From NCBI GenBank assembly GCA_041651015.1, contig JBAZKA010000005.1, positions 1,326-65,325 on the forward strand: DNA of 64,000 nucleotides, given 5' to 3'. A program made the translations under genes and the position numbers. Source of the DNA: Patescibacteria group bacterium. Its GTDB lineage: Bacteria; Patescibacteriota; Patescibacteriia; Magasanikbacterales; GWA2-37-8. Under the pieces are notes generated by a model. That model had not been told where the DNA came from. It saw only the letters and a program-made list of their open reading frames with translations, and did not search any database. Shown here one piece after another: positions 37,497 to 63,666 of this stretch. The first letter of the stretch is position 1. Each line of letters opens with the position of its first letter.

Positions 37497-38171
37497 ATGG
37501 ACGAACCGCAAAACCGTTTTAGCAAAGAGCAGAAAATCGGCTTGGTTTTGCTGTCTTCTTTTGTCGTACTGGCGGTGACGCTCGGGTTGATTGAAATGCG
37601 TAATACCTTGTATAGTCCGTTTGCTTTGAATAATTCCATTCCGGCTATGATTGGGAGTGATGTGGATACGACCGACGCGTTGCGTTATCGTGATACCGAT
37701 GCTGACGGCCTGAATGATTTTGACGAATTATATGTTTATTCCACCAGCCCGTATTTGGCTGATACTGATTCGGACGGCTTGACCGACAAGCAAGAAGTTG
37801 AAGGTGGTAAAAATCCCAATTGCGCCGAAGGCAAAGATTGCAATGCGTCAATCGCGGAAAACGGTTCGGCCATAATCGCCACCAGTTCCACTGATGTGGC
37901 CGATACCAACACACTGTTTTCAAATTATGATGTGACATCAACCTTGGAAGCCATGCTCACTTCGCCGGATCAGATGAGAACTCTTTTGCTTGAATCCGGT
38001 TTGGCGCAATCAGTGGTGGATAAAATTTCCGATGATGATCTGACCAAAATGGCGTTGGAGATAATGTCTTCATCTACCATCTTGGATAGTATGGAAACCA
38101 CTTCCACTACAGTATCTGATGTGACGACCACGGCGAAATTTATCAATCAACTAATGAATGCTTCGCAATAA
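37497..38171 (+). CDS. Membrane-anchored protein with thrombospondin-type-3-like Ca-binding repeats
   Basis: N-terminal TM. DTDADGLNDFDE / DTDSDGLTDKQE repeats. Its 3' end overlaps the start of the giant gene. Confidence 0.55.
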   Translation: MDEPQNRFSKEQKIGLVLLSSFVVLAVTLGLIEMRNTLYSPFALNNSIPAMIGSDVDTTDALRYRDTDADGLNDFDELYVYSTSPYLADTDSDGLTDKQEVEGGKNPNCAEGKDCNASIAENGSAIIATSSTDVADTNTLFSNYDVTSTLEAMLTSPDQMRTLLLESGLAQSVVDKISDDDLTKMALEIMSSSTILDSMETTSTTVSDVTTTAKFINQLMNASQ

Positions 38172-44100: not shown

Positions 44101-46341
44101 ATGTGTTTGATTAATGCGCCGACCAACAGAAAGCGCTCCACTGCTTATCCTACTTTTAATATGGGAGGTGCCTCAATGCAGGCGGACTGGGGAAATTCCA
44201 CGGGTAGTCTTCAAGGTCCGAATGGTGAGGCGATTCTTTATTCCGGCTCAGCGACTGTTGTTTATAATTCTTTGGAAAATAGCATCGTCACCGGATGTTG
44301 GGACACGAGTGCTAATGCGTTTGATGCTATTTGGGGGTTGTCTATGTCAGATGGAGACGATTCGCAAGGTAAATATTGTCCAATAAATAAAAATACATTG
44401 AAAGAAGCCGGGTCAAATCTCGCTCGGATCAGTTTGCCGGTCGGGCAGACATATTTGCAGAGGAATGATATTGAGAGAATAGATGTTTATCTTGATAAAC
44501 GGTACTCTGGCGACGGTGGTGATGGTGCTGGTTGTAGTGACGGTTGGGTGAGTTTTTACAATGATTTACTTGACGAGAACGAGGATCAATCTTTTATCGT
44601 TAAAGAATGGTTTAGACCGGGTTGTACAAATTCAAGCTGGAGAAAAAAGAGTTTTGGTAGTACCCCTTATTCATTATTAACCGACTGGTATTCGTGGCAA
44701 TGGGAAGGGGGCAATCTCGACGGAGATGGTAATTGGGTTAAAGATAGCAGTATTGTGTACAATCTACAAAACGATACCTATGCGTCCATAACACAAAACA
44801 ATGATTCAGGCAATGGCACTGGTATTCGGATTATATTTGATTCCAAAAATAATTTCAGAGGTATCTGGGTTGATGGCGAAGATAACGCGTCTGGTAGTAC
44901 CGATATGGGATTTTTCTTTGTCATTACTCTACGTGATGGTCGTTGCGCGGAACAATTGCAAATTTCCGATGAAGATGATGAATATTTTGGTTTTAAACCA
45001 TTTACCGGAAGACTAGCACTTGGAGACTTATCTGTCGGTGGAGACTGGGCGGAGTTTGGATTGTCTGCCACTCGCACCAAAGAGATGGATAACCCAAATT
45101 ATGGTTTAAATAGTGATAGCTCACCGCGCACTCTTATCAATCCATTTGTTACGTTATTGGGCAAGTATGGTGCTAACGCCCACAGTCCGCAGGGTATCTC
45201 CGATCCAGATACGGCCATGACAATTCACGCTTCAGATTATGACGCCGGTGTGCCGTTGAGCGTAATGAGGGTGCAAGATGCACCAGCAAGCGAGTACGCG
45301 AGATTTTATGTTGAAAAAGTTAGTGACTGTGCGGCGAACCCGGGTGCACCATATTGTCAGATGCTTAAGCGAATGTTTGCTCGAGTTTATTCGGATAGAT
45401 TGCTGGTGCGCGTGTCGGACGGTGTTTACGCGTTCAAAGATGATCCGACGACATCCGATGGTACAATAGTGGTAAAAAACGGGACATCGGTAGATGACTT
45501 TGACTCTACTGCCGACGCTGCCAATCCGGCAACCGCAAAGACATTAAAATTAATTCTTTATCCGCCACGTGTGGCGGCTCCAACATCTGCCGGTTACGAG
45601 ATAGATGCAGTTGCAGTTAACGGACAAACATCCGGCAATGTGTACTTGGCATCTGGTGCGACTGCGGCGATTCAATTTTACGCGTGGGCTTCACCCAACC
45701 AAATGCCACTGCGCCGTGTCGCGGTCAGAAAAGGCGATGGCACGGATCCAGTAGCGGTTGAGAGCGAAAGTTTAAGTAATAAAAAACCGTCATGCAATAC
45801 AAAATTTTGTGATTGCAATCGCAATACGGGTACAGGTGGAGATGAATTTTGTATTCAGGACCTTAGTGAATTGATGCCTTGTAGTAATGATAGTGATTGC
45901 GACGGATTAACGAACAACACCGTATGCTCAGGCTCTTCCGCCTCCGGTTATACGACCTTTGGCTCGACTTCGGACACCGGCTGCAAAGCCGAACCCTATG
46001 ATTTCATTGTGGATTATTCTTGCCCAATGGGTGGCAGTGAAGGAGCAAAAGTTTATCCATCATCCGCCTCCACCTACGGCATAAATTGGAACACAGACAT
46101 TGTCGCCAATTTCGGTGATGTTCCTTACGTTTGCGCCTTCCAACCCAAAGTTCAGGTGTTGGATAATTGGGGTTGGTGCACTAGTCGAGCGCCAGGTACA
46201 AACGGTGGATGTAATTATTCTTCAAATGAATATGTGAATGGATACGGGTGTTATGCGGAGGATGTATATGATTATTGCGCTTTAAGTAAATCACAACCGT
46301 GGGTACTATATGGTGGTTACGTGGTCGTAGTGCCAATGTAA
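38158..46341 (+). CDS. Giant (2727 aa) Cys-rich extracellular/surface protein with polymorphic C-terminal module
   Basis: Uninterrupted 8.2-kb ORF. N-terminal signal/anchor (FGLSAILSIFVFVTIFGSLFFAP). Hundreds of Cys spaced as in disulfide-rich repeats. The C-terminal 125 aa are homologous to the downstream orphan ORF 47885-48259. Confidence 0.85.
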   Translation: MLRNNQRFMFFNTKKFGLSAILSIFVFVTIFGSLFFAPRPARAQMDANITNAFRAWQVKGTVQEVKQTLKEKAQFMFMTALMNGLNYFANKIAYDMGVWLASGDWGQGPFSSGKSFGSYMAQVAGDSLGEMLGSLSEDLGLNLCDLPDLRLDLALQLGFHFAYNEPKPKCSWQQLRAAYNPENVYSKYASREGLADRIGLGVNVKDTDMGIWFKSKETIDAYTEEQVAGASGEDARGEGISAMTEIISGKQVTPAAAMKQEMLAQTPSKQQEGRAADTRSMTNAALQKGATTVALNAVSTFVNTLLGTVVNNFVTKGMLPGGKTICNPGLSITGVGWNQCADSDSSDTLAANYYTSGSETDNRRAAQELFSELLAPKITTLENYDLATNMAECSEDNKSPDACVIDQSFMQILQQADLGDALTIKQAMERGLLHGDWKLISPNNAEETDKWTCAEEAYCYRNIKFLRQARILPVGFEMAAYIANASTPPSLSDVVNGFYDESSAYYHLINPQWVIKMPKMRCASYAYGAVAQDGVRVQECVDLQHCVGYNKDGTCQSWGYCMKEKPVWKFDAGYCDSIYSTCKAFTGADGDASYLTRTLDTTECNSDNVGCARYSRDKYYVNSSTVDWYSQLAVYNATDETFTNTGIHFNKSVSTCSAENDGCSAFKLASDNSTLLYLKKAPDYLGCYDADPSTAANSLALLNKKISNGVQWPMTLSGLNLIQPQDKKACANYAQVCLPEEVNCNYYTASYTGEKIPAKFTPAVVSDGLVTWNDQCDAVCNGYAAYQEMPSNYSSGQNLSYIIPSSGNSCIASQSGCTAFTNLNANSGGMEQKEYFSYLRLCALPDQTKQKNYTVYESSESGGYSIKTYTLVKNDSNNGPKQIFRDADEYAELAPLCSQTAYEAGTADPDCHQFIGDDASKYYAFLSKTIIATDQCTPYRLSSPELIALTSTDLRCAYDYDYYGVDRRAGSSTVEFKSNACYYMGTTVGTNGAGDTRTCNSNVESCRAYKGNAGNNVRLLLNEDFENADLTNWGVSASSASTVTIATSTESTQIDGHSLRVNVKTNSSAATAYAQLNGLPVTKGKAYTISFWAKGSAALKSVSLASADFEGSFTDSEINSSDVWKYYSFGPLNYNGSATTSILYLPLSATGGATQQLFIDNIRLTEVADYIYLVKNSLSVNALCDSDTSDNLPGEALGCTAYSDPLKNMFYLTGFNYLCREAAVGCTAVLDTYNTPDDPNAQAYNVWIAGASGGTASATVGGETFTCQVPTGETGCYTDIMGYTAAQLVAAGNVHLTSSTIYIPPDTTTSTPIYLVANQSATCKAENLGCEVLGKSTVSASGLSYKVDGILVVHYETFEETAVLNNPALYSDTLCKNEEAGCSAWTSGDSSYYFKKPNATCTYKTDKFISIEPPAAGVEIKSVNLKANSIGWVMQDTGICVRNELSSYGIVGSSIFGIGGFILNSGSHYMGRYCATDADCVIGTSTGTCKYVNQVPCYPASRKPSGEYQLWSSGNPVKYYNYVGTCPQEQSGCTEYVDHSSSDNNVCAMTGEVCTDDSDCETEGDTCVANEDSAYYLIDNEKLQAQEAACNGQVSQAEGCALLDNTNNPNKYWNTTSSYALSTSNDENLVTPVDKGNANDANTILKVKHDRECAEWAYCDFKQTYVDSETNETASRCYHLGVCQQASSAVGVSGRCAEGGVVTGSWLGKDKVLDKNYYQSLYSSWDSIDLSGYSIPFTYQIPDLRVRNVDDTNRLVYVTTTALCTDETDNGSACGSGGACYNGECLFNYIGPGNSVTSSRSISCRSYPEDSSPFSTSVLSDNTVWGDGGSSGGHLMSAIYKTGFENTNLCYDDSGELTNNKCDCSYDKFQTSGGDIFTQVGRSTASGYVCSGGSYNGKDCDGSDDIDTCGTGGTCSKVNSVSVMTGWQGYCMEKDLRQTINGTSNHRCLTWWPLELAPGTSDIWATDPSAGYEVGETDDRYMCLINAPTNRKRSTAYPTFNMGGASMQADWGNSTGSLQGPNGEAILYSGSATVVYNSLENSIVTGCWDTSANAFDAIWGLSMSDGDDSQGKYCPINKNTLKEAGSNLARISLPVGQTYLQRNDIERIDVYLDKRYSGDGGDGAGCSDGWVSFYNDLLDENEDQSFIVKEWFRPGCTNSSWRKKSFGSTPYSLLTDWYSWQWEGGNLDGDGNWVKDSSIVYNLQNDTYASITQNNDSGNGTGIRIIFDSKNNFRGIWVDGEDNASGSTDMGFFFVITLRDGRCAEQLQISDEDDEYFGFKPFTGRLALGDLSVGGDWAEFGLSATRTKEMDNPNYGLNSDSSPRTLINPFVTLLGKYGANAHSPQGISDPDTAMTIHASDYDAGVPLSVMRVQDAPASEYARFYVEKVSDCAANPGAPYCQMLKRMFARVYSDRLLVRVSDGVYAFKDDPTTSDGTIVVKNGTSVDDFDSTADAANPATAKTLKLILYPPRVAAPTSAGYEIDAVAVNGQTSGNVYLASGATAAIQFYAWASPNQMPLRRVAVRKGDGTDPVAVESESLSNKKPSCNTKFCDCNRNTGTGGDEFCIQDLSELMPCSNDSDCDGLTNNTVCSGSSASGYTTFGSTSDTGCKAEPYDFIVDYSCPMGGSEGAKVYPSSASTYGINWNTDIVANFGDVPYVCAFQPKVQVLDNWGWCTSRAPGTNGGCNYSSNEYVNGYGCYAEDVYDYCALSKSQPWVLYGGYVVVVPM

Positions 46342-51434: not shown

Positions 51435-54400
51435 ATGAATAATTCCCTCCTGAACAAGGGGAGATGGTTGTGGCAGAAAATTAAACCGCGAAGGCGGCTT
51501 GGTTTTGTTTCCATATTTTTGCTAATGTCGGTCTTTTTGTTCGCGATGTTTGTGGTGGGAATCCATCCGGCGTATGCCGATTTTGGCAGTACGCTTTCCG
51601 AGTGGTTAGGAAATTTAGTTTTGGGATTGGCGGCGACTTTCATGTCCATTACGGTTTTTATTTTGAAATTCGTCATTGAAATCGCCAGCTATAATCATTA
51701 TATCAACGCGCCGGCCGTCACTCTCGGCTGGGTGTTGGTGCGCGACGTCACCAACATGTTTTTTGTTTTGATTTTAATGGTGATCGCGTTTGGCACAGTT
51801 CTCGGCATAGAGCAATACGAATGGAAAAAATTATTGGTCAAGTTTGTCATGGCCGCCATACTGGTTAATTTTTCTCGTTTGATTTGCGGCGTCATCATTG
51901 ATGCGGCCCAAGTGTTTATGATGACTTTTATTTCCGGCGCGGCCGCGACCGCTGGCGGAAATTTGGTCAATGCTTTGCACATGAATGATATTTTAGCTTT
52001 TGCCACCGATGCCGACCCGAGCGCGTTGAGTACTGATATAAATGTTCTTGTTTCAGCAATAGTCGCTTGTATTTTTGCCTTTACCGCCATGGTGGTGATT
52101 GGCGCGTATCTACTCATGCTGATTGCACGCGTCATCGCGCTTTGGATTTGCATTATTTTGTCGCCGTTGGCTTTTGTGCTTGGCGTAATTCCCAAATTTC
52201 AATCTTACGCCAGCCAGTGGTGGACTGAATTTACCAACAATGTTTTGTCCGGGCCGGTGTTGGCATTTTTTTTATGGTTGGCTTTTGCCGTGGCCGGAGG
52301 CGCTAACATCCACGATGAATTCACCGGCGCCAATTCCGGCTATCCAATTACAGATGCGGAAACCGCCATGCAAGAGGCATCGACAGCCACCGGCGGCGAG
52401 CCGAGCATGAACCTTAACAAAGTTTTGCAATGGGAAAATTTAGCGAATTTTATTTTAGCGGCGGCATTGTTGCTGGCCGGCGTGAAAACCACGCAAAAAT
52501 TATCCGCGGCCGGAGCTGGTATGCTTGGCGCCGCGGCCGGCGCAGCCACTAAGTTTGCTTATGCGGCGTCCGGCGCCGCGGCCGGTTTGGCCGCCGCCAA
52601 GTGGACGGGGAAGACGGCAAAGGCCGTGGGAAAAGGTATTGCCATGAATGTGCCGTTAGTGGGAGGAAATGCATGGAAAGAACGGGGAGAAAATTTAGCG
52701 TTGAACGCGAAACTTGGGATGCAAGCAGGGAAGGATTTTTATAATAGACAAATACTTGAACGTGGGTCGCATGCCTTTGCTCGAACAAAGCCCGGCAAAT
52801 TCTTGGCAGCTGCTGGGGGTGTCGTTGGCCTGAATAAAGGAGATATTTCTAGTCAGTTTATGATTGGTACTAGGGCGGCGCAAATTAAAACGAAGAAAGA
52901 TATGCTGGAAAATCGTATTAAGCTTGCTGAAACATCTGTAAAGGAACCGGAAGATCTAAAACAAAAACAGGCTGATCTCAAGGCCAACGTTGAGCTCGGA
53001 AAACTAATAAAAGCCGGTGTTATTGCAAAACGTGATGAGCAGGCGTGGAAAAATCTTGAGGAGAAAATTGCGCCTGATAGTAAAGGTAGGGGTGAAAAAT
53101 TAGTTGACATGGCTGCCAGCATGCAAGCAAAGGCTGATTTGTTTGAATCTAAACACAAACAAGAACAACAAGTAAGGTTGTTATCCGCGAAAGAAGATGT
53201 TTTGCGGAAAAAAGCCGGTGAAACCGGCATTGGAGGCTACACGGTGGAAGCTGATAAAGCCAAAGCTGAACGCTTGGGGATTGAAAATGAAAAAATGGTG
53301 AAGGAGGCCGGCGGTATTGATAATTTAACTGATCAACAAAAATTAGAATTTCAAAAAAATAAACAATTTATTGATATTTCCGCGGCGCAAACAAAATTAA
53401 TTGAAGAACAAACTCAGGTCGCCGGTGAGCAAGCTAAACAGGTGTTGTTGACCGGTGCTGGCGAGGAATCCGGGCGCTTAGAAGGCATTCAAGGGCGCCA
53501 AGCTGAGTTGATGAAAGAAAAGGAGTTGATTACCCAAGATAATCGCGCGATTGAAGAAATTAGACAGCTAAAGCGTATAGAGGAGCTATTGCGGACAAGC
53601 GGAAGAATGCAAGATTTAAACAGCAGTTTGCATGGAAATAAAATTGAACTGGATGACGCGAAAATAGAAACCGATCGGGCGACTTCGGAACTAAACGCCA
53701 AAAGCTATGAGGGTAAAGGCCGAGATGATTTGGCGCGTTTGGAACACGCAAAATTTGCGAACAGTTATTTTAAGAAAATGCAGGAAAATTTTGCCGATTA
53801 TAGTTATAATGATTTTGCAACTGAAGCCCCGGCGCAATTTAAACGTGTTCAGGATGCCGCGGCAGCATATGATGGCGTGAAGGGGACAGGTAGTCCAGAC
53901 GAAGCCGAAAAAACGAAAGCGTACCAAAAAGAGGCGGCCAAAACCGCGAGCTTTGTAGCTCTGAGCATGCGTGACGCCTCAACTTACAAAGCAGTTGAAG
54001 ACGCGGCAACAAAGGTGATCCCTTACACCGGCGACAGGTCACCGGAAAACAGGCAAAATATTCTCGCCTCAATGATTAGCGGACGAGACATGAAAGGTAA
54101 GAATAGTGTTGAGCTTAATAGCGAATTAAGCGGTCTTAATAGAAATAATCAGCACCAAGTTAATGCCATGTTGAAAATTTTGCAAGACAACGCCAAGACA
54201 TTGGCCTCTAAGTCTGGCTATGCTTCAGTGGTATCTGGTGTCAAATATGATACGGTGAAGGGAAACTATTCTCTTGGTTATAATAAAGAAGATGCTGATT
54301 ATTATTCTACCCATGCCAATATGCGTGAGGCAACGAATGCCTACCACATAATCTATCAAGACAAGACAGGTGATCTCAACATCGACGTGCACAATGAAAA

Positions 54401-54659
54401 TGCTTTTATAAGTCAAGTTAAGAACGCGGATCAAAATAATGTGGGTCGCGTGTTCCTTCCCGCGTTAATGGCTGACTTGAATGAAAAAATGGAAGCCCTT
54501 GATCCTGCTAAGCTGGATGGATTCCTAAAACATGTAGCCGAAGGCATGACAGACGACAAAGCACTTAAAATTTTAATCAAACGCATGGAGAAAATTTTGA
54601 AAAAATCCGGTAAAACAGAGGCGGAAATTTTAAAGTATTGGAAAGATTCGCATAAGTAA
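51435..54659 (+). CDS. VirB6/TrbL-like polytopic membrane protein with about 700-aa C-terminal coiled-coil/charged extension
   Basis: About 330-aa N-terminal region with 6-7 TM helices in TrbL/VirB6-like spacing, Gly/Ala-rich hinge, then long Lys/Glu/Ala-rich alpha-helical tail. Confidence 0.6.
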   Translation: MNNSLLNKGRWLWQKIKPRRRLGFVSIFLLMSVFLFAMFVVGIHPAYADFGSTLSEWLGNLVLGLAATFMSITVFILKFVIEIASYNHYINAPAVTLGWVLVRDVTNMFFVLILMVIAFGTVLGIEQYEWKKLLVKFVMAAILVNFSRLICGVIIDAAQVFMMTFISGAAATAGGNLVNALHMNDILAFATDADPSALSTDINVLVSAIVACIFAFTAMVVIGAYLLMLIARVIALWICIILSPLAFVLGVIPKFQSYASQWWTEFTNNVLSGPVLAFFLWLAFAVAGGANIHDEFTGANSGYPITDAETAMQEASTATGGEPSMNLNKVLQWENLANFILAAALLLAGVKTTQKLSAAGAGMLGAAAGAATKFAYAASGAAAGLAAAKWTGKTAKAVGKGIAMNVPLVGGNAWKERGENLALNAKLGMQAGKDFYNRQILERGSHAFARTKPGKFLAAAGGVVGLNKGDISSQFMIGTRAAQIKTKKDMLENRIKLAETSVKEPEDLKQKQADLKANVELGKLIKAGVIAKRDEQAWKNLEEKIAPDSKGRGEKLVDMAASMQAKADLFESKHKQEQQVRLLSAKEDVLRKKAGETGIGGYTVEADKAKAERLGIENEKMVKEAGGIDNLTDQQKLEFQKNKQFIDISAAQTKLIEEQTQVAGEQAKQVLLTGAGEESGRLEGIQGRQAELMKEKELITQDNRAIEEIRQLKRIEELLRTSGRMQDLNSSLHGNKIELDDAKIETDRATSELNAKSYEGKGRDDLARLEHAKFANSYFKKMQENFADYSYNDFATEAPAQFKRVQDAAAAYDGVKGTGSPDEAEKTKAYQKEAAKTASFVALSMRDASTYKAVEDAATKVIPYTGDRSPENRQNILASMISGRDMKGKNSVELNSELSGLNRNNQHQVNAMLKILQDNAKTLASKSGYASVVSGVKYDTVKGNYSLGYNKEDADYYSTHANMREATNAYHIIYQDKTGDLNIDVHNENAFISQVKNADQNNVGRVFLPALMADLNEKMEALDPAKLDGFLKHVAEGMTDDKALKILIKRMEKILKKSGKTEAEILKYWKDSHK

Positions 54660-54667
54660 AACATATT

Positions 54668-55663
54668 ATGCAATCATTTCATCCAAAATTAATCGGTTCA
54701 AAAACATTTGAAGAATTGTTCAAGGATTTTTTTGAAACCGCGCGATATGATTCTGTGCAAATGGAGGTGACGAGATTGGAATTATTCAGTTTGTTTGGCG
54801 AGATGAGCATAACTGAGATTCAGGAGTATCGCCGGACTTATTGGCCATTTTATGTTTATGCCATTTGGTCAAATCCTTTGGATGTTCGCCCGGAAGTAAT
54901 GATAAAGAATATTGCGATTCAATTGCCCGATGCTGTGCGGCTGGGTTTTGATATTTTAGATAAAATTCTTTCATACGCGAATTTTCGTTTGACATTGGAG
55001 CCGGACATTCAATCATTTTTTGCCAAGACGCGCGACGCTTTGGAGAGATCCGACTGGCCGATCGGCGTATTGCCAAATGGTAAAATTTATACAATTGCCG
55101 ATTGCGTCAAAGAGGTTATGATGAATGAAAGTAGAGCGAGCAACAGTATGGAATATGCCGAGCTGTATCAGAAATTATCAAAGCTGATATTTCCAAACGG
55201 TTTAAATGATGAGTTGTATAAAAAAGAATATATTTATATTACGACTCACGAGGCTGTTGATAATTTGATCAAAATAATTACCGTGTTAACACAAAATTCA
55301 CCAGAGACCCTTACTCAATTAGTTGATCAATATGCACATCCGGAGATTTATGACCCTGATTATGGCATGAATATAAATATTAAAACTGAACCTGTGATGT
55401 CAAGTCAAGATGGCAAGCCTTCATCACCCATAACCCCACCCGCAAACCCTATGCCCCCAACTCCACCCCTCGTCAAACCCGCGCCCGCGGAAATCCGCGC
55501 GAAAATTGATGCCGCGTTTGAAAAAGACGCGCAAGGAAATTACAAAGATTTAGATGGTGTGTTTATTGTTTTGGGACGTGCGGCCGCTAAATACAACGAC
55601 CCAAAGATCGCCGAATTATATTATTTTGATGACAATGCCGGTGAGTTTAAATGGAATGTTTAA
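54668..55663 (+). CDS. Hypothetical protein with Pro-rich C-terminus (T4SS-cluster associated)
   Basis: 331 aa. PITPPANPMPPTPPLVKPAPA linker. Confidence 0.5.
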   Translation: MQSFHPKLIGSKTFEELFKDFFETARYDSVQMEVTRLELFSLFGEMSITEIQEYRRTYWPFYVYAIWSNPLDVRPEVMIKNIAIQLPDAVRLGFDILDKILSYANFRLTLEPDIQSFFAKTRDALERSDWPIGVLPNGKIYTIADCVKEVMMNESRASNSMEYAELYQKLSKLIFPNGLNDELYKKEYIYITTHEAVDNLIKIITVLTQNSPETLTQLVDQYAHPEIYDPDYGMNINIKTEPVMSSQDGKPSSPITPPANPMPPTPPLVKPAPAEIRAKIDAAFEKDAQGNYKDLDGVFIVLGRAAAKYNDPKIAELYYFDDNAGEFKWNV

Positions 55664-55664
55664 T

Positions 55665-56780
55665 ATGACAGATGAAGTTTTAATCCCAGTCAAAAAATTA
55701 GACGGCACGGTGGAAAAAATCACCATGGCCGAATTTCAGACTCGGCAAAAAAATAAACAGCGTGCCAAGACGGCCGTGGTAATTACGCAAAAACCAATTT
55801 CGCCGGCACAAACTGTCGTCATTCCCGCACCCACGACGCCAAAGACGGTTATCAATGAAAAAATTAAAGAAGAACCGGCGTTGGAAGAATTACCCAAGAC
55901 AACCGCTAATGCCCCGCGAGTCAGTCCGGATAGAAAAGCCGAGGCTGGGGAGATCGTTCGCAAATTAAATTTACAAATTTCATCTGATGCCAAAAATCGT
56001 TTGCTTGGTTTGGTTCAACTGCGCCTCAAAGATGTGCGCGGCGAGGAAGAAGTAAAAGAATGGCTCGTCCGTTCGGAAAATCAATATGGCATTGGTTTAG
56101 ATGCCGTGGCCGCGGATAAAGTTATCATGGCGGTTAATGATTTTATCAAAAAAAATATTCCCCAATCCGCTGAAGTTCCGGTTTTAAAAAAACCTCTCGG
56201 TGTGCCTAAAGCGCTTTTGAAAGAAGACCAAGAACCGTTCCCGGCCACATCATCCCCGATAAATTCGTTTGTGCATCGTAGCACGCCAGAGCCCCAAAGG
56301 GGCGAAGGTGGCCTTGGCTCGCCGAAGCAAAAAAGCGAAGGTGGCCGTAAATCTTTGGATGATTTGGTACGCGCCGAGTCCGTTAATATGGGTAATGATA
56401 TTTCCGGCCTGGTGGCGAAAAGAGAAATGCCGGCGCGGACAATGGTGCAAGATATTACGCCGGCCAAACCGGCCAATCTCGGGCCGGTGGAAGAAATTCG
56501 TTATTTCACGCTGACTGATTTTCGCCGGCTGTCCACCAACCCAAATGAAGCCGCCTCGCGTCTGGCGCAAAAATTTACGAATCTGCGGGACGAGTCGTAT
56601 ATTTTATTTATGAATGCTTTGGAAGCGTGGCGTTTGAGCCCGTTGTTTAATGATTATATTGGCGCTTCGGCCGCATCATTGAATATGAAAAAGAAAGTGG
56701 CGGAAAATATGGCTGATAAAAATAAAATTCAGATGAACGAAATTAAGGCCTTGATACAAATGGAGAAAGATTTGCTATAA
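55665..56780 (+). CDS. Hypothetical Lys/Pro-rich protein (T4SS-cluster associated)
   Basis: Start at MTDEVLIP (ATG 55665). Contains a GC-rich internal direct repeat (56290-56345; GEGGLGSPKQKSEGG). Confidence 0.5.
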   Translation: MTDEVLIPVKKLDGTVEKITMAEFQTRQKNKQRAKTAVVITQKPISPAQTVVIPAPTTPKTVINEKIKEEPALEELPKTTANAPRVSPDRKAEAGEIVRKLNLQISSDAKNRLLGLVQLRLKDVRGEEEVKEWLVRSENQYGIGLDAVAADKVIMAVNDFIKKNIPQSAEVPVLKKPLGVPKALLKEDQEPFPATSSPINSFVHRSTPEPQRGEGGLGSPKQKSEGGRKSLDDLVRAESVNMGNDISGLVAKREMPARTMVQDITPAKPANLGPVEEIRYFTLTDFRRLSTNPNEAASRLAQKFTNLRDESYILFMNALEAWRLSPLFNDYIGASAASLNMKKKVAENMADKNKIQMNEIKALIQMEKDLL

Positions 56781-56784
56781 TACT

Positions 56785-57222
56785 ATGGCGATGCAAACAC
56801 AATTTGTCGTGCCGCAATTCATTGATGTGGAAGACAAGATTTTTGGACCGGTGACGGCACGCCAGTTTGTGATTTTGTTGGTGTCCGGCTTGCTCATTGT
56901 ACTTGCTTATAAGTTGGCGGATTTTGCTTTATTTGTTTTTATCTTGGTGATATTGGGCGGCGGATCGCTGGTCATCGCTTTTGTCAAAGTCAACGGCCAA
57001 CCATTTCATTATGTAATTTTGAACATTATTCAGACATTGCGTCGTCCATCGCTCAGAATTTGGAATAAAGTTTTTGACACGGCGGATTTGAAACGCATAC
57101 GCGAAGAGGCGAAAGTAGTGGTGCCGGAAGCGGCTAAACCGATTCAGCGAATATCTTACAGCCGTTTGCGTGATTTATCCTTGACGGTCAATACCGGCGG
57201 ATATTATAAATCAGAAGACTAA
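56785..57222 (+). CDS. Small two-TM membrane protein, VirB3/PrgI-like by position and topology
   Basis: FGPVTARQFVILLVSGLLIVLAYKL...FVFILVILGGGSLVIAFV. Immediately precedes the VirB4 ORFs, as VirB3-type genes do. Confidence 0.4.
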   Translation: MAMQTQFVVPQFIDVEDKIFGPVTARQFVILLVSGLLIVLAYKLADFALFVFILVILGGGSLVIAFVKVNGQPFHYVILNIIQTLRRPSLRIWNKVFDTADLKRIREEAKVVVPEAAKPIQRISYSRLRDLSLTVNTGGYYKSED

Positions 57223-57224
57223 CT

Positions 57225-57911
57225 ATGAAAAATAATAATGCGGTCAAAAAACGCGCGGCCATCCCATCTTCACAAAAGAATTTGGCTTTGGCGGAAATTA
57301 AAAATGACACCATCTTGATGAAAGATGGGACTTTGCGCGCCGCTTTGGTCGTGTCCAGTATTAATTTTGCCCTCAAGAACGAGGATGAACAGCAGGCTAT
57401 TGTTAGCGCCTATGTTTCATTTTTGAACGGCTTGGACCATCCTTTACAAATTGTCATCCAATCTCGGCAACTAAATATTAAACCATATTTAGAAAAGTTG
57501 GCGCAAAAAGAACGCGAACAGCCCAACGAATTATTGCGCATGCAAATTGCCGACTATAGGTCCTTTGTCGGCGAGCTGGTCAGCCTGGGAAAAATTATGA
57601 GCAAAAATTTTTACGTGATTGTGCCATATGATCCGCTCTCAAATAAGAAACGCGGTTTTTGGGCGCGCGCGTCCGAAGTTTTAAACCCCGCCATCACCGT
57701 GCACCTGAAAGAAGAAAGATTTTTGAAACGAAAATATGATTTAGATATGCGCGTCCGCCAAATTGAATCTGGCCTCACCAGCATGGGTTTGGAAGTGGTG
57801 CGCTTGGATACGCAATCGTTGATTGAATTATTTTATTCAACTTACAACCCGGACATTTCATTGTCCGAGCCGCTCGCGCCAATCGGGGATTTTAATATAG
57901 AAAACGCCTGA
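57225..57911 (+). CDS. VirB4/TrbE-family ATPase, N-terminal domain encoded as a separate ORF
   Basis: ILMKDGTLRAALVVSSINFALKNEDEQQAIVSAYVSFLNGLDHPLQIVIQSRQLNIKPYL, ...NFYVIVPYDP..., ...EVVRLDTQSLIELFYSTYNPD. This matches the canonical N-terminus of Gram-positive-type VirB4 (PrgJ/TcpF class). Confidence 0.7.
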   Translation: MKNNNAVKKRAAIPSSQKNLALAEIKNDTILMKDGTLRAALVVSSINFALKNEDEQQAIVSAYVSFLNGLDHPLQIVIQSRQLNIKPYLEKLAQKEREQPNELLRMQIADYRSFVGELVSLGKIMSKNFYVIVPYDPLSNKKRGFWARASEVLNPAITVHLKEERFLKRKYDLDMRVRQIESGLTSMGLEVVRLDTQSLIELFYSTYNPDISLSEPLAPIGDFNIENA

Positions 57912-57916
57912 TTAAT

Positions 57917-59797
57917 ATGGCCTTCAAACCATCATCAATAAATAAAAAAGAAGAAAAAAAATCAACCGGGCGTTTAGCCATGGAAACTTCGGCCATCAAA
58001 CAGAGTACGGCCGAAGAAATGGCCACGCTGGAAGAGGAGCGGATTTATCGCGAGGGCGTAATTTCCATTCGTGATTTAGTGGCGCCGTCCGCGTTTCGCG
58101 TGGAATCAAGTTTTGTTCAGCTCGGCGATGTTTTTTGCCGTACGCTTTTCATCACCGCGTATCCGCGCTACATCTCCATCGGTTGGGCCTCGCCGATTAT
58201 CAACATGTCGGCCACGATGGATGTGGGCATGTTTTTCTATCCGATTAAATCCGCGATAATTTTGAAACAATTAAAAAATAAAGTCGGCGCCTTGGAGGCG
58301 CAAATAAATTCCGATACTGAAAAGGGCGCCCCGCGCGACCCGATTCGCGAAACGGCTTTGCGCGATATAGAACAATTGCGCGACAACCTGACTCAAGGAA
58401 CCGAACACTTTTTCCAATTTTGTTTTTATGCCACGGTTTATGCTAAGAGCAAGGAAGAATTGGACCGGACATCCGAAGATATAGAAAATATTTTTGGCGG
58501 CAAACTAATAATTACGCGTAAGGTTTTGTATCAAGCCGAGCAAGGCTTTAATTCCACTTTGCCGATTGCGAACGACGAACTTTTTATTTCTTTCAACATG
58601 AATTCGTCGCCGATTGCCGCCTCGTTCCCGTTTATCTCGGCCGAGCTGACTTCGGATGATGGTATTTTGTACGGTATCAATCGCCACAACAATAGTTTGA
58701 TTTTGTTTGATAGATTTTCCCTGCAAAACGCCAATATGGTGGTCTTTGCCACCTCGGGCGCGGGCAAAAGTTATACTATTAAATTGGAAATTCTGCGCAC
58801 GATGATGATGGGTGTGGACGTGATTGTCATTGACCCGGAAATGGAATACAAACATTTGAGCGACGCGGTTGGGGGGACGTATATCAATATTTCGCTTTCA
58901 TCCGAAGCTAAGATCAATCCTTTTGATTTGCCTCGTCCGATGGGGATGGAAATTTCCACCGAGGATGTCATCCGGAGCGCGGTGATTACCGTTAAAGGTT
59001 TACTCCGCATCATGCTTGGCGGTTTATCCGTGGAGCAGGACGCGATTATTGATCGGGCTTTGATTGAAGCGTTTGCCAAAAAAGATATTACGCCGGATGC
59101 GGATTTGGCCACCGTTCGTCCGCCGATTATGCAGGATTTGGTGGAAGTTTTGGAAGGCATGCAAGGTTCGGGCGAGTTGGTGCTCAAATTGCAAAAATAC
59201 ACTGATGGCACATTTGCCGGCTTGTTTAATTCGCCGACCAATGTGGATATGAAAAATCAATTGGTGGTATTTTCAGTCCGAGATTTGGAAGAAGAACTTC
59301 GTCCGATTGCCATCTATACCATTATCAACTACATTTGGAACGTGGTGCGGTCCGAACGCAAAAAAAGAATTCTGGTGATTGATGAGGCTTGGTGGCTGAT
59401 GATGCATGAGGACTCGGCGAAATTTATTTTTTCTCTGGTCAAACGCGCGCGTAAATATTATTTGGGCGTCACCACCATCACTCAGGATGTAAACGACTTT
59501 TTGAAGTCTCAATACGGACAAGCGATCGTCACGAACTCGGCTTTACAGTTATTACTTCGCCAGTCGCCGGCTTCCATTGATTTGATTCAAAAAGTATTTG
59601 TCTTGACCGACAGTGAAAAATATCTATTATTGGAATCGGGTGTGGGCGAAGGGATTTTCTTTGCCGGACTAAAGCATGCGGCTATCAAAGTGGTGGCGTC
59701 ATACACCGAAGACCAAATTGTCACCACCAATCCTGAACAGCTTTTGGCCATAGAAAAAGCCAAAAAAGAATTTTCCGCCCAAGGCGGATCAGCTTAG
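57917..59797 (+). CDS. VirB4/TrbE-family conjugal transfer ATPase, central and C-terminal ATPase part
   Basis: RTLFITAYPRYISIGWASPIINMSATMD. Walker A FATSGAGKSYTIK. Walker B ILVIDEAWWLM. Different frame from 57225-57911, separated by TGA + 5 nt. Confidence 0.85.
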   Translation: MAFKPSSINKKEEKKSTGRLAMETSAIKQSTAEEMATLEEERIYREGVISIRDLVAPSAFRVESSFVQLGDVFCRTLFITAYPRYISIGWASPIINMSATMDVGMFFYPIKSAIILKQLKNKVGALEAQINSDTEKGAPRDPIRETALRDIEQLRDNLTQGTEHFFQFCFYATVYAKSKEELDRTSEDIENIFGGKLIITRKVLYQAEQGFNSTLPIANDELFISFNMNSSPIAASFPFISAELTSDDGILYGINRHNNSLILFDRFSLQNANMVVFATSGAGKSYTIKLEILRTMMMGVDVIVIDPEMEYKHLSDAVGGTYINISLSSEAKINPFDLPRPMGMEISTEDVIRSAVITVKGLLRIMLGGLSVEQDAIIDRALIEAFAKKDITPDADLATVRPPIMQDLVEVLEGMQGSGELVLKLQKYTDGTFAGLFNSPTNVDMKNQLVVFSVRDLEEELRPIAIYTIINYIWNVVRSERKKRILVIDEAWWLMMHEDSAKFIFSLVKRARKYYLGVTTITQDVNDFLKSQYGQAIVTNSALQLLLRQSPASIDLIQKVFVLTDSEKYLLLESGVGEGIFFAGLKHAAIKVVASYTEDQIVTTNPEQLLAIEKAKKEFSAQGGSA

Positions 59798-59827: not shown

Positions 59828-60421
59828 ATGACCACACTTCGTTCCCGAATATTTATTCTCATCAGTTTGATTGTTCTCATAATATTGGCCATCAGCATTG
59901 GCTTGATTGTGATTTCCAAGAAAAAACAGGCCGCTACTGTGGCCGAGACAACTCCAACCACGACTGCCGGCACGATTGATTCCACGAATTTTCCGGCGCA
60001 AATTACCACGCCGGCCACGGTTATTCCTTCCGGCACGACCGTAAAGCCGGCCACCACTGAAGAAACCATGAAAAATGCGGCTAAACAATTGGCTAAAATT
60101 TTTGTGGAGCGGTATGGCTCATATTCATCGGACGCAAGCGGTGAAAATATCCGTTCGGTGGAACCATTGGTGACGAAAGATTTGTGGGCAATCTTGAGCC
60201 AGCGCTTGAACGTAAAATACAACGGTGATTTTATCGGCGTCACCACCAAGGTTATCGCAACCAATGTGACGGATTTTTCAGCGTCCAGCGCAACAGTTGA
60301 ACTTAATTCCCAGAGGACGACCACCAAGGGTGCTACCGTGGCCGAGAGCACTCAAGCGGCGACGGTTAAACTGGTTAAATCCGGTGATAACTGGCTGGTG
60401 GATGATATCAAGTGGAAGTAA
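59828..60421 (+). CDS. Thr-rich membrane-anchored protein (possible VirB8-like periplasmic-domain protein; weak)
   Basis: N-terminal TM, Thr/Ala-rich linker, about 110-aa globular C-terminal domain. Confidence 0.45.
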   Translation: MTTLRSRIFILISLIVLIILAISIGLIVISKKKQAATVAETTPTTTAGTIDSTNFPAQITTPATVIPSGTTVKPATTEETMKNAAKQLAKIFVERYGSYSSDASGENIRSVEPLVTKDLWAILSQRLNVKYNGDFIGVTTKVIATNVTDFSASSATVELNSQRTTTKGATVAESTQAATVKLVKSGDNWLVDDIKWK

Positions 60422-60535
60422 TTTTTATTATTCAATTTTCCTCCCCCTATTAGGGGGAGGACAGAGGAGGGGGTATGTTTTGTTGACCTCACCCTCTGTC
60501 CCTCTCCTAAAAGGAGAGGGATTTAATTAGTTTAT

Positions 60536-61054
60536 ATGAGGAAAAAATTATTGGTCGCAATTCTAATTATCGCGTTGCTCGTGTTGGTCGGCCTAATTAC
60601 CTGGCAATTTTACGGTCGTTCGTGGTGGGAAATAAAAAAAGAAAAGATTTCTATTGGTTTGTCTGAGCCAAATTTTCCTTGGCGCGATAGAACTCAAGAT
60701 GAATTAAATACACTATATCCACAAATTAAAAACGCCGATGTGGCGACTCGGACCACGCCCGAGCAAACGTATGCCAAATTTAGAGAAGGTTTGAAAAATA
60801 ATGATTTGCCAACTGTATTGGATCAATTATTCAAAGATTCTTCGCGCTATGAATCAAATGTCGCGGCTATCTCTAAGGCGTATAATGAAAATAAATTTAC
60901 TTCAATTTATGAAAAATATCCGGAGGTGATAACAAGTACTCTACAGGGTGATTCGCTGGCGCAGTATGTATTTATATATAACAACGGGGCATCTTCGCAT
61001 CATGTTGATTTCAATAAAAATAGCAGCGGAGATTGGAAAATAACGCAATATTAA
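60536..61054 (+). CDS. Membrane-anchored hypothetical protein
   Basis: N-terminal TM plus about 140-aa domain. Preceded by a cluster of GC hairpins (60440-60517). Confidence 0.5.
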   Translation: MRKKLLVAILIIALLVLVGLITWQFYGRSWWEIKKEKISIGLSEPNFPWRDRTQDELNTLYPQIKNADVATRTTPEQTYAKFREGLKNNDLPTVLDQLFKDSSRYESNVAAISKAYNENKFTSIYEKYPEVITSTLQGDSLAQYVFIYNNGASSHHVDFNKNSSGDWKITQY

Positions 61055-61065
61055 TAATATATTAT

Positions 61066-63666
61066 ATGAGGAGGGTAATTTTCTTTGCCGTATTGATTGT
61101 TATAATTGTATCCATAGCAACTATATCTAAACAGGCAAGTTCCTTTGATACTTATGTGGCGCACCCGCATTTGACCGAGGCGGCAATAAATTTATTTAAT
61201 CAAAAAGCGGGCAATAAAATAAACGATGAAGAAAAACAAAATATTATTCAAGGGTCAATTGATGAGGATACACCGGCTCGTTGGATGAATCATTTTTATA
61301 ACCCGAATACGAACAAGGGGTTATATGGTTTTTCCTCAGCTAAAAAATGGGTCAATTATCCAGACTCGCAAGAAATGTACGCTGTCGGCGACCAATCATG
61401 GGACGCGGCTTTATATGCCTATGCGGATAACGATTATAATACGGCCTTTTTGGCTTTGGGGCATGTTTTGCATTTGATTGAAGATATGGCGGTGCCGGCC
61501 CACACACGTCTTGATTCGCATCCCGAGGGCGACCCGTTGGAATCATGGGCCGAAAAATATAATCCAGGTTTTGCAAGAGAAGATATAGAATATTACGATA
61601 ATTTAGATGCATATTTTTATAATTTAGCCAGTATTTCAAATAATAATTTTTTTAGTGAAGATACGATAGATAAGAAAGATATAAATCTAAATAATATTAA
61701 AGGAGTAATATATAGTGGCGTTCCGCTAAATTGTGTCCAAGAATTATATGATAATAAGAAATATTGTAAAATAGCCGTTGAAGAAGATCTCGTTGACTCA
61801 AATAATAATAAATATTTTATAACAGATAAAATTAACTCCGACTACTATTCCATTCTCGCGCCAAAAGCCGTATCATACGCGGCCGGAGTAATCCAATTAT
61901 TTTTTGAACAAGGCGAGGCAACACGCGCTAAACATGATGCAATTAGAGCCAAGTATAACGCGTATACAAATGCCTTAACAAAATTATTTATTAATCAAAA
62001 CGGGAAACTTGTTTCCGCAGTTGACCTTTTGAAAAATCCGCAAACCTCGCAAAAGGTCGCTGATGTAATTATCCAATCGGTCAATAAAACTCAGGCGGAA
62101 ACCACCAAAGAAATTATCAAGATCTTAACTCCGGCCACCACGACAAAAACTGCCGATGTATTGGGTGAAAAAATTATTCCGCCTTTGGAAAATGATGTAT
62201 CTTCAGCTACCTCAACCACAGATGATTCCGTCAAAACAATATATTTATTTACCGGTTCGCCCGCTTATGTTTTTGAACCATGGCCGGCTTTGATTTTTGA
62301 TTCAATATTTTCTTCAACGCTTTATACTTCGTCAACATTGGTCTCGGTATTTGGCGAGTGCGCCAGCGGGACACAATCAATTTTTGTATATCGCTCGGCC
62401 GAGTCATCGTCAACTCCTGACTATATGGCGAACGCCACTACCACGATAAATAATATTAACTGGTCGTCAGAACTAATTCCGCAATACGGCATCAATTTAT
62501 ATTATTTTTCCGCGCTCGGCGATGATGGACGTCCGACTTCGTCGGCCGTTGGGCCGGCGCAAATCATTTTAGATTACTTTGCTCCGTCGTCCACCGCGCT
62601 CGCGGCCGAAATAATTTCCACGTCCACCACTTCCACTGTAATTCATTTAAATCTTTCGGCCGAAGAAAATATCTCTGTTCCAGTTGCGTATGATTTGGAT
62701 TTTTCGGCCAGCGGCACTGAATGGGCTAACCTTCTATCAGTATCCACTAGTACATTTTATGATTTTACGGCGACCAGTTCGGGCGATTATGTGTTTCGTT
62801 TGCGGGCAAGCGACGCGCTTGGCAACGTGTCTGACTATGTATTCGCGACGACCACTGTGGAATTAGGACCGATTGAATATGAGTACATCCATCTGAGCGG
62901 GGAACAAATTGATGATGAATTAATTTTAACCGCGACCGGCAGTCCGTATATTTTGGAGCATTATATTGTCCCGGCTGGTAAAATTTTACGGCTTCAACCC
63001 GGCACAATAGTCAAAGGATTAAACCGCGCTTCGTATATGGAAATATATGGTTCAATGTATGTTGAAGGGGCGGGGAGCGGCCGCGTTGCGTTTACGTCAG
63101 TCCAAGATAGAAGTTTTGGCGATGATAGAACCAACACGATGACTCTTGGCACAAACAATGAACCAGCAGCGTGGGATTGGGGTGGCCTGATATTCTATGG
63201 CGGTAGTTATGGCGAGATAAACTACGCAGATTTTCGTTATAGCGGTTCAGACCCGTTCCTGTGCCTAACCGCGCGGGCTACCTGTGGTTTCTATAGTAAA
63301 ACAATTTATGCCGGCGATGGCGTCATCTTGTCAATTGATAATTCCACCTTTTCATACGGCGGCAACTTGTATATTAAAGCGGAATTTTATCAATCAATTC
63401 CGGAAGCGAACTCAATTTCCATAACCAATACTATTTTTGATGGCGCTAATTCCTATAGTAATTACGGTTCCGGAATTGGCGGAATATATATTGTACGCGG
63501 TGCGTTGCATTTAGATAATGTGCAATTTTTAAATTTAGAATATGGAATATATTCCGACTCGCGTGATTGGAATTGGCCGGCGATCACAATAAACAATGTT
63601 TCATCGGCGAATTTCATTAACGTGACAACGCCGGTTTATCCGGAGGGAATATTGACGCTTGAGTGA
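61066..63666 (+). CDS. Membrane-anchored zinc-dependent phospholipase C (PLC/nuclease P1 fold)-like protein with C-terminal beta-helix region
   Basis: YVAHPHLTEAAI..., HFYNPNTNKG (compare B. cereus PLC HFYDPDNGKTY), ALGHVLHLIEDMAVPAHT (compare LGLSLHYLGDVNQPMHA). C-terminal Gly/Asn/Ser-rich repeats typical of parallel beta-helix. Start at internal ATG 61066. Confidence 0.65.
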   Translation: MRRVIFFAVLIVIIVSIATISKQASSFDTYVAHPHLTEAAINLFNQKAGNKINDEEKQNIIQGSIDEDTPARWMNHFYNPNTNKGLYGFSSAKKWVNYPDSQEMYAVGDQSWDAALYAYADNDYNTAFLALGHVLHLIEDMAVPAHTRLDSHPEGDPLESWAEKYNPGFAREDIEYYDNLDAYFYNLASISNNNFFSEDTIDKKDINLNNIKGVIYSGVPLNCVQELYDNKKYCKIAVEEDLVDSNNNKYFITDKINSDYYSILAPKAVSYAAGVIQLFFEQGEATRAKHDAIRAKYNAYTNALTKLFINQNGKLVSAVDLLKNPQTSQKVADVIIQSVNKTQAETTKEIIKILTPATTTKTADVLGEKIIPPLENDVSSATSTTDDSVKTIYLFTGSPAYVFEPWPALIFDSIFSSTLYTSSTLVSVFGECASGTQSIFVYRSAESSSTPDYMANATTTINNINWSSELIPQYGINLYYFSALGDDGRPTSSAVGPAQIILDYFAPSSTALAAEIISTSTTSTVIHLNLSAEENISVPVAYDLDFSASGTEWANLLSVSTSTFYDFTATSSGDYVFRLRASDALGNVSDYVFATTTVELGPIEYEYIHLSGEQIDDELILTATGSPYILEHYIVPAGKILRLQPGTIVKGLNRASYMEIYGSMYVEGAGSGRVAFTSVQDRSFGDDRTNTMTLGTNNEPAAWDWGGLIFYGGSYGEINYADFRYSGSDPFLCLTARATCGFYSKTIYAGDGVILSIDNSTFSYGGNLYIKAEFYQSIPEANSISITNTIFDGANSYSNYGSGIGGIYIVRGALHLDNVQFLNLEYGIYSDSRDWNWPAITINNVSSANFINVTTPVYPEGILTLE

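Follow-up and report, generated by a model that had tools for sequence, protein, structure and literature searches.

In the 64,000-nt stretch of Patescibacteria DNA that was analysed here (the window), an uninterrupted open reading frame (ORF) near the 3' end encodes an 866-aa protein whose N-terminal domain resembles the zinc-dependent phospholipases C (PLC), and a gene for a 172-aa membrane-anchored protein stands directly upstream of it. These two genes were found to form a two-gene cassette, conserved across Patescibacteria and independent of the adjoining genes that resemble a type IV secretion system (T4SS). A preliminary description of the locus had presented the large protein as a membrane-anchored PLC-like domain fused to a long β-helix next to the T4SS-like genes, and had overlooked the truly conserved partner, the 172-aa gene. 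The coordinates of the features are presented in Table 1.

Table 1. Features of the PLC-like cassette and of the neighbouring genes in the window.
Feature	Position	Strand	Basis or remark
PLC-like multidomain protein gene	61066..63666	+	866 aa plus stop codon; uninterrupted ORF
Predicted Sec signal peptide, residues 1-26, MRRVIFFAVLIVIIVSIATISKQASS, cleavage before Phe27	61066..61143	+	Pattern in 110 relatives
Catalytic-type domain, zinc PLC / P1 superfamily fold (residues 27-290)	61144..61935	+	AlphaFold2, Foldseek, profiles
Linker (residues ~291-408)	61936..62289	+	Continued last long helix, then low-complexity Thr/Ser/Lys-rich segment
β-Sandwich domain 1, FN3/Ig-like (residues ~409-502)	62290..62571	+	AlphaFold2 strand pattern, Foldseek
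β-Sandwich domain 2, FN3-like (residues ~509-598)	62590..62859	+	AlphaFold2, Foldseek, weak sequence matches
Right-handed β-helix-type domain (residues ~608-866)	62887..63663	+	AlphaFold2, homologous segments
Partner gene, 172 aa: N-terminal transmembrane helix and ~130-aa extracytoplasmic domain, probably NTF2-like (DUF4878-like)	60536..61054	+	
Three consecutive GC-rich stem-loops	60439..60521	+	In the 114-nt spacer between the stop of the T4SS-side ORF (60421) and the partner gene
VirB4-type ATPase gene, 626 aa	57917-59797	+	
TraC-N-like gene, 228 aa	57225-57911	+	
PrgI/VirB3-like gene	56785-57222	+	
1074-aa multi-pass membrane protein	51435-54659	+	Long coiled, charged C-terminal half; no Pfam match

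The PLC-like ORF, which ends at 63666 on the + strand, could start at TTG 61033 or at ATG 61066. The ATG was selected because the four closest orthologues (40–75% identity) open with MRR at the corresponding point; the TTG, which would moreover overlap the partner gene, was rejected. A single-sequence search of the PDB with the product resulted in a weak FN3 match only, and the NCBIfam scan gave no meaningful match. A search of 5.8 billion proteins yielded 212 relatives, and the domain and residue counts given below were determined from 120 of them that were listed. The public annotations of the relatives vary between 'lamin tail domain-containing protein', 'thermonuclease family protein', 'serine-rich adhesin' and 'hypothetical protein'.

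The AlphaFold2 model of residues 27–300 was obtained with a predicted local distance difference test score (pLDDT) of 95.4 and a predicted template modelling (TM) score of 0.92. The top match of this model in the PDB, as determined with Foldseek, was the phosphatidylcholine-specific PLC (PC-PLC) of B. cereus, 1AH7, with an E-value of 2.7e-6, TM scores of 0.60/0.66 and ~15% identity, followed by Listeria PlcB (8CQM) and then by the clostridial alpha-toxins (1CA1, E 7e-5). The plant S1/P1-type nucleases were matched at E≥1.1 with TM scores of 0.2–0.39, the values of TBN1 being 1.1 and 0.37/0.39, respectively. The model also contains a β-sheet insertion at residues ~211–251 (mature residues 185–225) that is absent from PLC.

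The sequence comparisons resulted in a similar assignment. The Pfam family Zn_dep_PLPC (PF00882) matched the full-length protein with an E-value of 1.7e-4 (22.0 bits) and, at E≤1, 26 of 36 N-terminal domains of the family, the best of them at 1.6e-7; S1-P1_nuclease (PF02265) matched none of the 36. When a profile of 36 mature domains was compared with the PDB, 8CQM (E 7.5e-5) and 1AH7 (E 1.3e-4) were found and S1/P1 nuclease chains were not. The alignment of the domain with PLC by hhalign had a probability of 94.9%. The PLC-type fold proposed in the preliminary description was thus upheld by the profile, AlphaFold2/Foldseek and Pfam results, since the domain is closest to the bacterial zinc PLCs (1AH7, PlcB 8CQM and alpha-toxin) by sequence profile as well as by structure; neither a loss of the ligand pattern nor a better structural match outside the PLC/P1 fold was detected. 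The PLC and P1 nuclease families have a common fold and a common metal site, and the family described here is a divergent outlier at the edge of PF00882, within the PLC/P1 superfamily.

The residues H33, E67, D68, R72, H76, W95, H133, H136, D140, H146, D150, H152 and E159 were invariant or nearly so in the 120 relatives, the overall identity of which is just 30–50%. Both His-rich motifs quoted earlier were located in the product, HFYNPNTNKG at residues 76–85 and HVLHLIEDMAVPAHT at residues 133–147, and their conservation, as judged from the alignments, is far beyond chance. The zinc ions of PLC are bound by nine ligands, which are the N-terminal residue, His14, Asp55, His69, His118, Asp122, His128, His142 and Glu146. 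According to the alignments of the family profile with the PDB chains and to hhalign, His69, His118, Asp122, His128 and Glu146 of PLC pair with H76, H136, D140, H146 and E159, respectively. The invariant H33 and D68 are found in the expected order and were left unaligned to the PLC ligands by the sequence tools. The equally invariant H152, seven residues ahead of E159, is presumed to stand in for His142 of PLC.

The N-terminal hydrophobic stretch of the protein, which had been taken for a membrane anchor, follows the pattern of a cleavable Sec signal peptide in 107–110 of the 110 relatives with a complete N-terminus. The presequences of these relatives have a median length of 27 aa and consist of roughly two Lys/Arg residues and then a stretch of ~15 residues without charge. 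The residue at position -1 is A, S, G or C in 107 of them and the one at -3 is small or aliphatic in all 110. Position +1 is occupied by Tyr in 102 and by Phe in 8 of the relatives, and by Phe27 in the window protein. The PLC-like domain was found at the extreme N-terminus in all 120 relatives, and in the 150 best library matches position 1 of the profile fell, with one exception, at about residue 9–46. In the PLC and P1 enzymes, the first mature residue is an aromatic one and its free amino group ligates zinc. Since the n/h/c organisation, the -3/-1 rule and the conserved aromatic residue at +1 suit such a role as zinc ligand, the protein is predicted to be secreted rather than anchored, with cleavage after Ser26 and Phe27 as the mature N-terminus.

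The 172-aa partner gene ends with a stop codon 11 nt ahead of the ATG of the PLC-like gene. Homologues of it with 44–61% identity stand at the corresponding site in three loci of differing context (P0003, P0004 and P0019). By an iterated hidden Markov model (HMM), the partner was detected directly upstream, in the same orientation, in 77 of 81 testable loci; because the HMM gave just 91 matches in total among all ORFs of 84 loci, the search is regarded as specific. Independent clustering by BLAST placed the partner in 78 of the 84 loci at a median of -371 nt. The next commonest neighbours, an IS200-like transposase, a TPR protein and ribosomal protein L7/L12, were found in 19 loci at most and were rejected as parts of the cassette, being generic. 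A VirB8-like T4SS component was also considered for the partner and rejected, as the gene accompanies the PLC-like gene in loci devoid of T4SS genes.

The extracytoplasmic domain of the partner is characterised by the signature ...TPEET..F..AL..GD...A..YF.....WKI. Weak matches to DUF4878 were determined for 18 of 43 members, and weak PDB-profile matches (E 0.06–0.13) referred to the NTF2-like N-terminal domains of PBP5/PBP2a and to de novo NTF2 designs. With modest confidence, these similarities suggest that the partner is a membrane-anchored NTF2-like protein.

The C-terminal part of the PLC-like protein was found to be more complex than the 500-aa β-helix that had been proposed for it. A β-helix is indeed predicted, but it covers residues ~608–866 (~260 aa); residues ~409–598 form two FN3/Ig-like β-sandwiches and residues ~291–408 a linker. 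The last helix of the PLC-like domain extends to the end of the N-terminal AlphaFold2 model, and the first ~20 residues of the C-terminal model (residues 385–866, mean pLDDT 88.5) have a low pLDDT. The Foldseek matches of the C-terminal model were dominated by tandem FN3/Ig pairs with E-values of 3e-6 to 1e-4, those of NCAM2 and titin being ~3e-6, and weak sequence matches of the FN3-like region to FN3con and to the Y_Y_Y domain were also obtained. From residue ~608 to the end of the protein, short strands recur every ~20–25 residues, mostly with pLDDT >90. This region is homologous to segments of the relatives (phmmer E 1e-12 to 1e-24), and of 22 such segments 11 match Pfam Beta_helix (PF13229; best 7e-12) and 3 match NosD. 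The β-helix segment of the window protein itself had no direct Pfam match, and its profile found no sequence relative in the PDB; both the recurring strands and, via the relatives, a profile match were nevertheless found for residues ~608–866. As to the features of autotransporters and adhesins, a C-terminal barrel, a transmembrane segment and an LPXTG motif were absent and the protein ends in the β-helix (...PVYPEGILTLE).

Most of the relatives are ~1200 aa long and carry a lamin tail domain (LTD) between the FN3-like part and the β-helix, often with a second copy of the latter. Others bear β-propellers, LamG or a staphylococcal nuclease (SNase) domain, which in P0016, P0073, P0076, P0086 and P0105 is inserted beside the PLC-like domain. 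In the domain scan, neither LTD nor SNase was detected in the window protein or its four closest orthologues. Judging from these architectures, the C-terminal modules (LTD, β-propeller, LamG, SNase) are freely swapped among the relatives.

The source names given among the 212 relatives are those of Patescibacteria lineages, 'unclassified bacterium' or a bare protein name. In the GTDB species set, a relative is encoded by 440 species-representative genomes; the 80 of them that were listed are all metagenome-assembled and most are labelled as Patescibacteria or its lineages, some of the automatic binning labels being clearly unreliable. An exhaustive profile search among 1.84 billion cluster representatives resulted in 1167 clusters at E≤1e-30 and 5196 at E≤1e-10. 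The family is large, and its members were detected in assemblies of Patescibacteria type only. In the literature on zinc PLC in Patescibacteria and the Candidate Phyla Radiation, no paper describing the family was found.

Some of the other loci differ in their details. An identical 877-aa gene call occurs in two assemblies, followed by different downstream sequence (L001, 12954–13316, and L002, 5120–5809): a 120-aa ORF is found in one assembly and a 229-aa ORF overlapping the end of the gene in the other, which points to a 3' flank, near or beyond the end of the window, that varies between strains or assemblies. In L011, L038, L040, L072 and L080, the N-domain profile matched a second time 0.6–2.5 kb downstream of the first match, so these could be tandem paralogues or frameshifted genes. 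Genes for large Wzy_C (O-antigen-ligase-like) and TPR proteins and for glycosyltransferases lie near the cassette in L003 (12767–14794) and L005 (2615–8575), and this arrangement is not family-wide.

The T4SS-like genes upstream of the cassette constitute a monoderm-type cluster (51435–59797, +), in which VirB4 is seemingly split into the TraC-N-like and the ATPase genes and which also holds two ORFs of 331 and ~353–408 aa with no Pfam match. The ORF directly after the VirB4-like gene (59828–60421, +) encodes a Thr-rich protein of 197 aa that has a transmembrane helix at its N-terminus; it accompanies VirB4 also in a second contig (L002) and is unrelated to the cassette in the other loci. Further upstream, a giant ORF of 2727 aa (38158–46341, +), the only Pfam match of which is a CBM_4_9 carbohydrate-binding domain at residues 1019–1145, is probably another large surface protein. 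The monoderm-type T4SS is known in Patescibacteria, where its genes are widespread and, in one species, essential for epibiotic growth (10.1101/2025.01.22.634366).

The statement that the PLC-like gene lies next to T4SS-like genes holds for the window, where PrgI-, TraC- and VirB4-like genes stand upstream at 56785–59797, but such linkage was found at none of the other family loci: within 6–10 kb, no homologues of VirB4, PrgI, TraC-N or the VirB6-like protein were detected besides the copies of this contig. The orthologues P0003 and P0004 (45–52% identity) and the relative P0019 are situated in three unrelated neighbourhoods. The adjacency to the T4SS-like genes is incidental, and the functional tie implied by it was not confirmed, as the linkage is not conserved and the Sec signal peptide with its conserved cleavage site points to Sec export rather than to delivery by a T4SS. 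The 114-nt spacer between the two gene sets folds as RNA with -54.5 kcal/mol (z = -5.66 compared with shuffled sequences). No Rfam family reached its threshold with the stem-loops of the spacer, the sub-threshold matches to miRNA models being due to chance; the element occurs just once in the window and the first stem is not followed by a T-run. The triple stem-loop probably marks the boundary of a transcription unit as a terminator or an insulator.

The results are best accommodated by a Sec-exported three-zinc phosphodiesterase of the PLC branch that acts together with a membrane-anchored partner and has a phospholipid as the most likely substrate, a reading to which we assign about an even chance of being correct. 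In the proposed mechanism, signal peptidase would cut after Ser26 and expose Phe27 as the new N-terminus. The free amino group of Phe27 would then complete the three-zinc centre in the manner of Trp1 of B. cereus PLC, the other predicted ligands being H33, D68, H76, H136, D140, H146, H152 and E159. The zinc centre would hydrolyse a phosphodiester bond, while the linker, the two FN3/Ig-like domains and the C-terminal β-helix may hold the enzyme on a surface or select its target. The partner would cooperate with the enzyme on the outer side of the cytoplasmic membrane, either as a tether, as an inhibitor that protects the producing cell or by receiving the product. The putative substrate would be the head-group ester of a phospholipid in a neighbouring or host membrane, from which diacylglycerol and the phosphorylated head group would be released. 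A phospholipid is favoured because both the sequence and the structure are closer to PLC than to P1 nuclease, and such a substrate fits organisms that are unable to make their own lipids. Patescibacteria devoid of lipid synthesis have been reported to recycle the lipids of the host, and a secreted phospholipase has been proposed for Vampirococcus (PMC8080830).

Several observations weigh against this reading. The mature domain scored 25.8 bits, just below the gathering cut-off of Zn_dep_PLPC (26.8 bits). In the sequence alignments, His142 of PLC falls opposite a Gly, and the first His is situated at +7 of the mature N-terminus, which is nearer to the spacing of P1 nuclease (Trp1/His6) than to that of PLC (Trp1/His14). 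The matches from which the partner was assigned as NTF2-like are weak (best E 2.9e-4). The presence of LTD in 104 and of SNase in 5 of the 120 relatives favours a nucleic-acid substrate. These domains bear on an alternative that we consider unlikely, in which the protein would be a secreted nuclease or 3'-nucleotidase that cleaves nucleic-acid phosphodiesters or 3'-phosphomonoesters in the way of S1/P1 and supplies nucleosides to a bacterium unable to make nucleotides, with the partner as its inhibitor. The inhibition of NucA by Nin in B. subtilis is a model for such a pair. A nuclease would be consistent with the fold and metal site common to both enzyme families and with the spacing between the aromatic residue at the mature N-terminus and the His at +7, which resembles Trp1/His6 of P1; also the invariant Arg72, four residues past Asp68, presumably recalls Asp45/Arg48 of P1 nuclease. 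Besides the SNase domain beside the PLC-like domain, the LTD argues in the same direction, as bacterial LTDs are found chiefly together with phosphoesterases associated with the membrane and with extracellular nucleases, for example ExeM (PMC6085458). The opposite is indicated by the comparisons with the nucleases themselves: S1-P1_nuclease matched 0 of 36 members, the family profile found no S1/P1 chain in the PDB, and in Foldseek the E≥1.1 and TM 0.2–0.39 of the nucleases stand against the E of 2.7e-6 and TM of 0.60–0.66 of PLC. The window protein, in addition, lacks both LTD and SNase.

Slightly less likely than a nuclease is a phosphodiesterase acting on an envelope polymer (teichoic acid, phosphoglycan or a lipid-linked glycan) of the host or of the cell itself, the β-helix of which would bind the glycan as in the tailspike depolymerases of phages. 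The combination of β-helix and FN3 modules is typical of surface proteins that bind or cleave carbohydrates, the C-terminal modules vary widely between the relatives as recognition of surface glycans would predict, and Wzy_C/O-antigen-ligase-like and glycosyltransferase genes lie beside some relatives. The glycan-related neighbours are, however, not conserved, since 19 of 84 loci is the highest count of any neighbour other than the partner, and to our knowledge no enzyme with the PLC fold acts on envelope polymers, which counts against this explanation. A membrane-attacking effector or adhesin, as suggested in the preliminary description, is in itself a plausible function that competes with the nuclease and wall-polymer readings. 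The full version of that description, in which a membrane-anchored effector or adhesin would be functionally linked to the T4SS-like machinery next to it or be exported by it, appears very improbable. The VirB4-like gene is found 1.3 kb upstream and in the same orientation, and the wide occurrence of T4SS genes in Patescibacteria and their essentiality in one species would make such a tie attractive; the lack of T4SS homologues at the other family loci, the orthologues in unrelated contexts, the strong triple hairpin between the two gene sets and the Sec-type signal peptide with its conserved cleavage site all speak against it. It is likewise hardly to be expected that the protein is a structural or adhesive surface component devoid of catalytic activity, with the PLC fold as a binding module only. 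Such a component would agree with the large multidomain extracellular architecture and the Pfam score below the threshold, but 120 relatives with an overall identity of only 30–50% retain all the ligand-type His, Asp and Glu residues with no or almost no variation. The retention of the ligands at such identity indicates that the metal site is under selection, which is unexpected for a purely structural role.

Patescibacteria account for a large part of the diversity of bacteria. Members that lack lipid and nucleotide pathways have to acquire these compounds from other cells, in ways that are largely unknown (PMC8080830; PMC10633639). The cassette is a candidate for how phosphate-ester nutrients, for example lipids, are taken from neighbouring cells. 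It combines an exported protein, a conserved centre of metal-hydrolase type, a wide distribution, a fixed partner and rapidly exchanged targeting modules, and these properties make it an expressible and assayable target. Whether the substrate proves to be a lipid, a nucleic acid or a wall polymer, its identification would reveal one way in which these bacteria acquire nutrients. The phospholipid reading may be extended to a lipid-harvesting module common to Patescibacteria, in which the enzyme would be aimed by the variable C-terminal modules and the NTF2-like partner would capture diacylglycerol for the membrane of the cell itself. This extension is doubtful, and less probable than either a nuclease or an envelope-polymer enzyme; the capture of lipid leans on the fact that the NTF2-like fold class often forms hydrophobic ligand pockets. 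If true, it would provide a concrete mechanism of membrane building in bacteria that are unable to synthesise lipids. The lack of conserved linkage, in turn, corrects the tempting inference of a T4SS effector.

Among the known proteins of Patescibacteria, a related precedent is offered by SEML1_0504 of the Saccharibacterium Southlakia epibionticum ML1, a 268-aa protein with a 'Phospholipase C/P1 nuclease' fold assigned by structure only and called essential at all three time points of transposon sequencing (Tn-seq) (PMC10633639, Tables S1 and S2). As compared via the annotation tables, it differs from the window protein in being a single domain with the fold beginning at residue 13 and in having other gene neighbours, and no signal peptide, FN3-like, β-helix or other added domain is listed for it there. 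SEML1_0775 of the same species contains two LTDs, is flagged as enriched in Patescibacteria and was called essential at the two later Tn-seq time points (PMC10633639, Table S1), so LTD surface proteins may be generally important in these bacteria. The extracellular nucleases of the ExeM/NucH type, which carry LTD, are similarly secreted multidomain phosphoesterases, and most relatives of the window protein have an LTD in the middle of the protein. The catalytic domain of ExeM/NucH is, in contrast, of the endonuclease/exonuclease/phosphatase (EEP) fold and not of the PLC fold, and the LTD is missing, by loss or from the outset, in the window protein and its four closest orthologues. With the S1/P1 nucleases (Penicillium P1, 1AK0; tomato TBN1, 4DJ4) the family has in common the superfamily, the trinuclear zinc chemistry, as predicted here, and the short spacing from the aromatic residue to the His, as well as the fusion of relatives to SNase or LTD; it is set apart from them by the missing sequence-profile match and the much weaker structural similarity.

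The likeness to B. cereus PC-PLC (1AH7) and Listeria PlcB (8CQM) comprises the all-helical fold, five aligned and invariant equivalents of zinc ligands, export and a predicted aromatic mature N-terminus. The window protein is, however, only ~15% identical to them, scores just below the Pfam threshold, leaves His142 unaligned and has the β-sheet insertion at ~211–251. Its predicted mature N-terminus is Phe (Tyr or Phe in the relatives) instead of the Trp of B. cereus PLC, with the first His at +7 instead of +14, and it is fused to ~570 aa of linker, FN3-like and β-helix modules. For the classical PLCs, we know of no membrane-anchored partner gene. In the C. perfringens alpha-toxin (1CA1), as in the window protein, the zinc PLC domain is followed by a β-rich C-terminal domain, which in the toxin serves for targeting. 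Alpha-toxin has as its C-terminal domain a single PLAT-like sandwich that binds membranes in a calcium-dependent manner, whereas in the window protein two FN3/Ig-like domains and a β-helix are found beyond a linker of ~115 aa.

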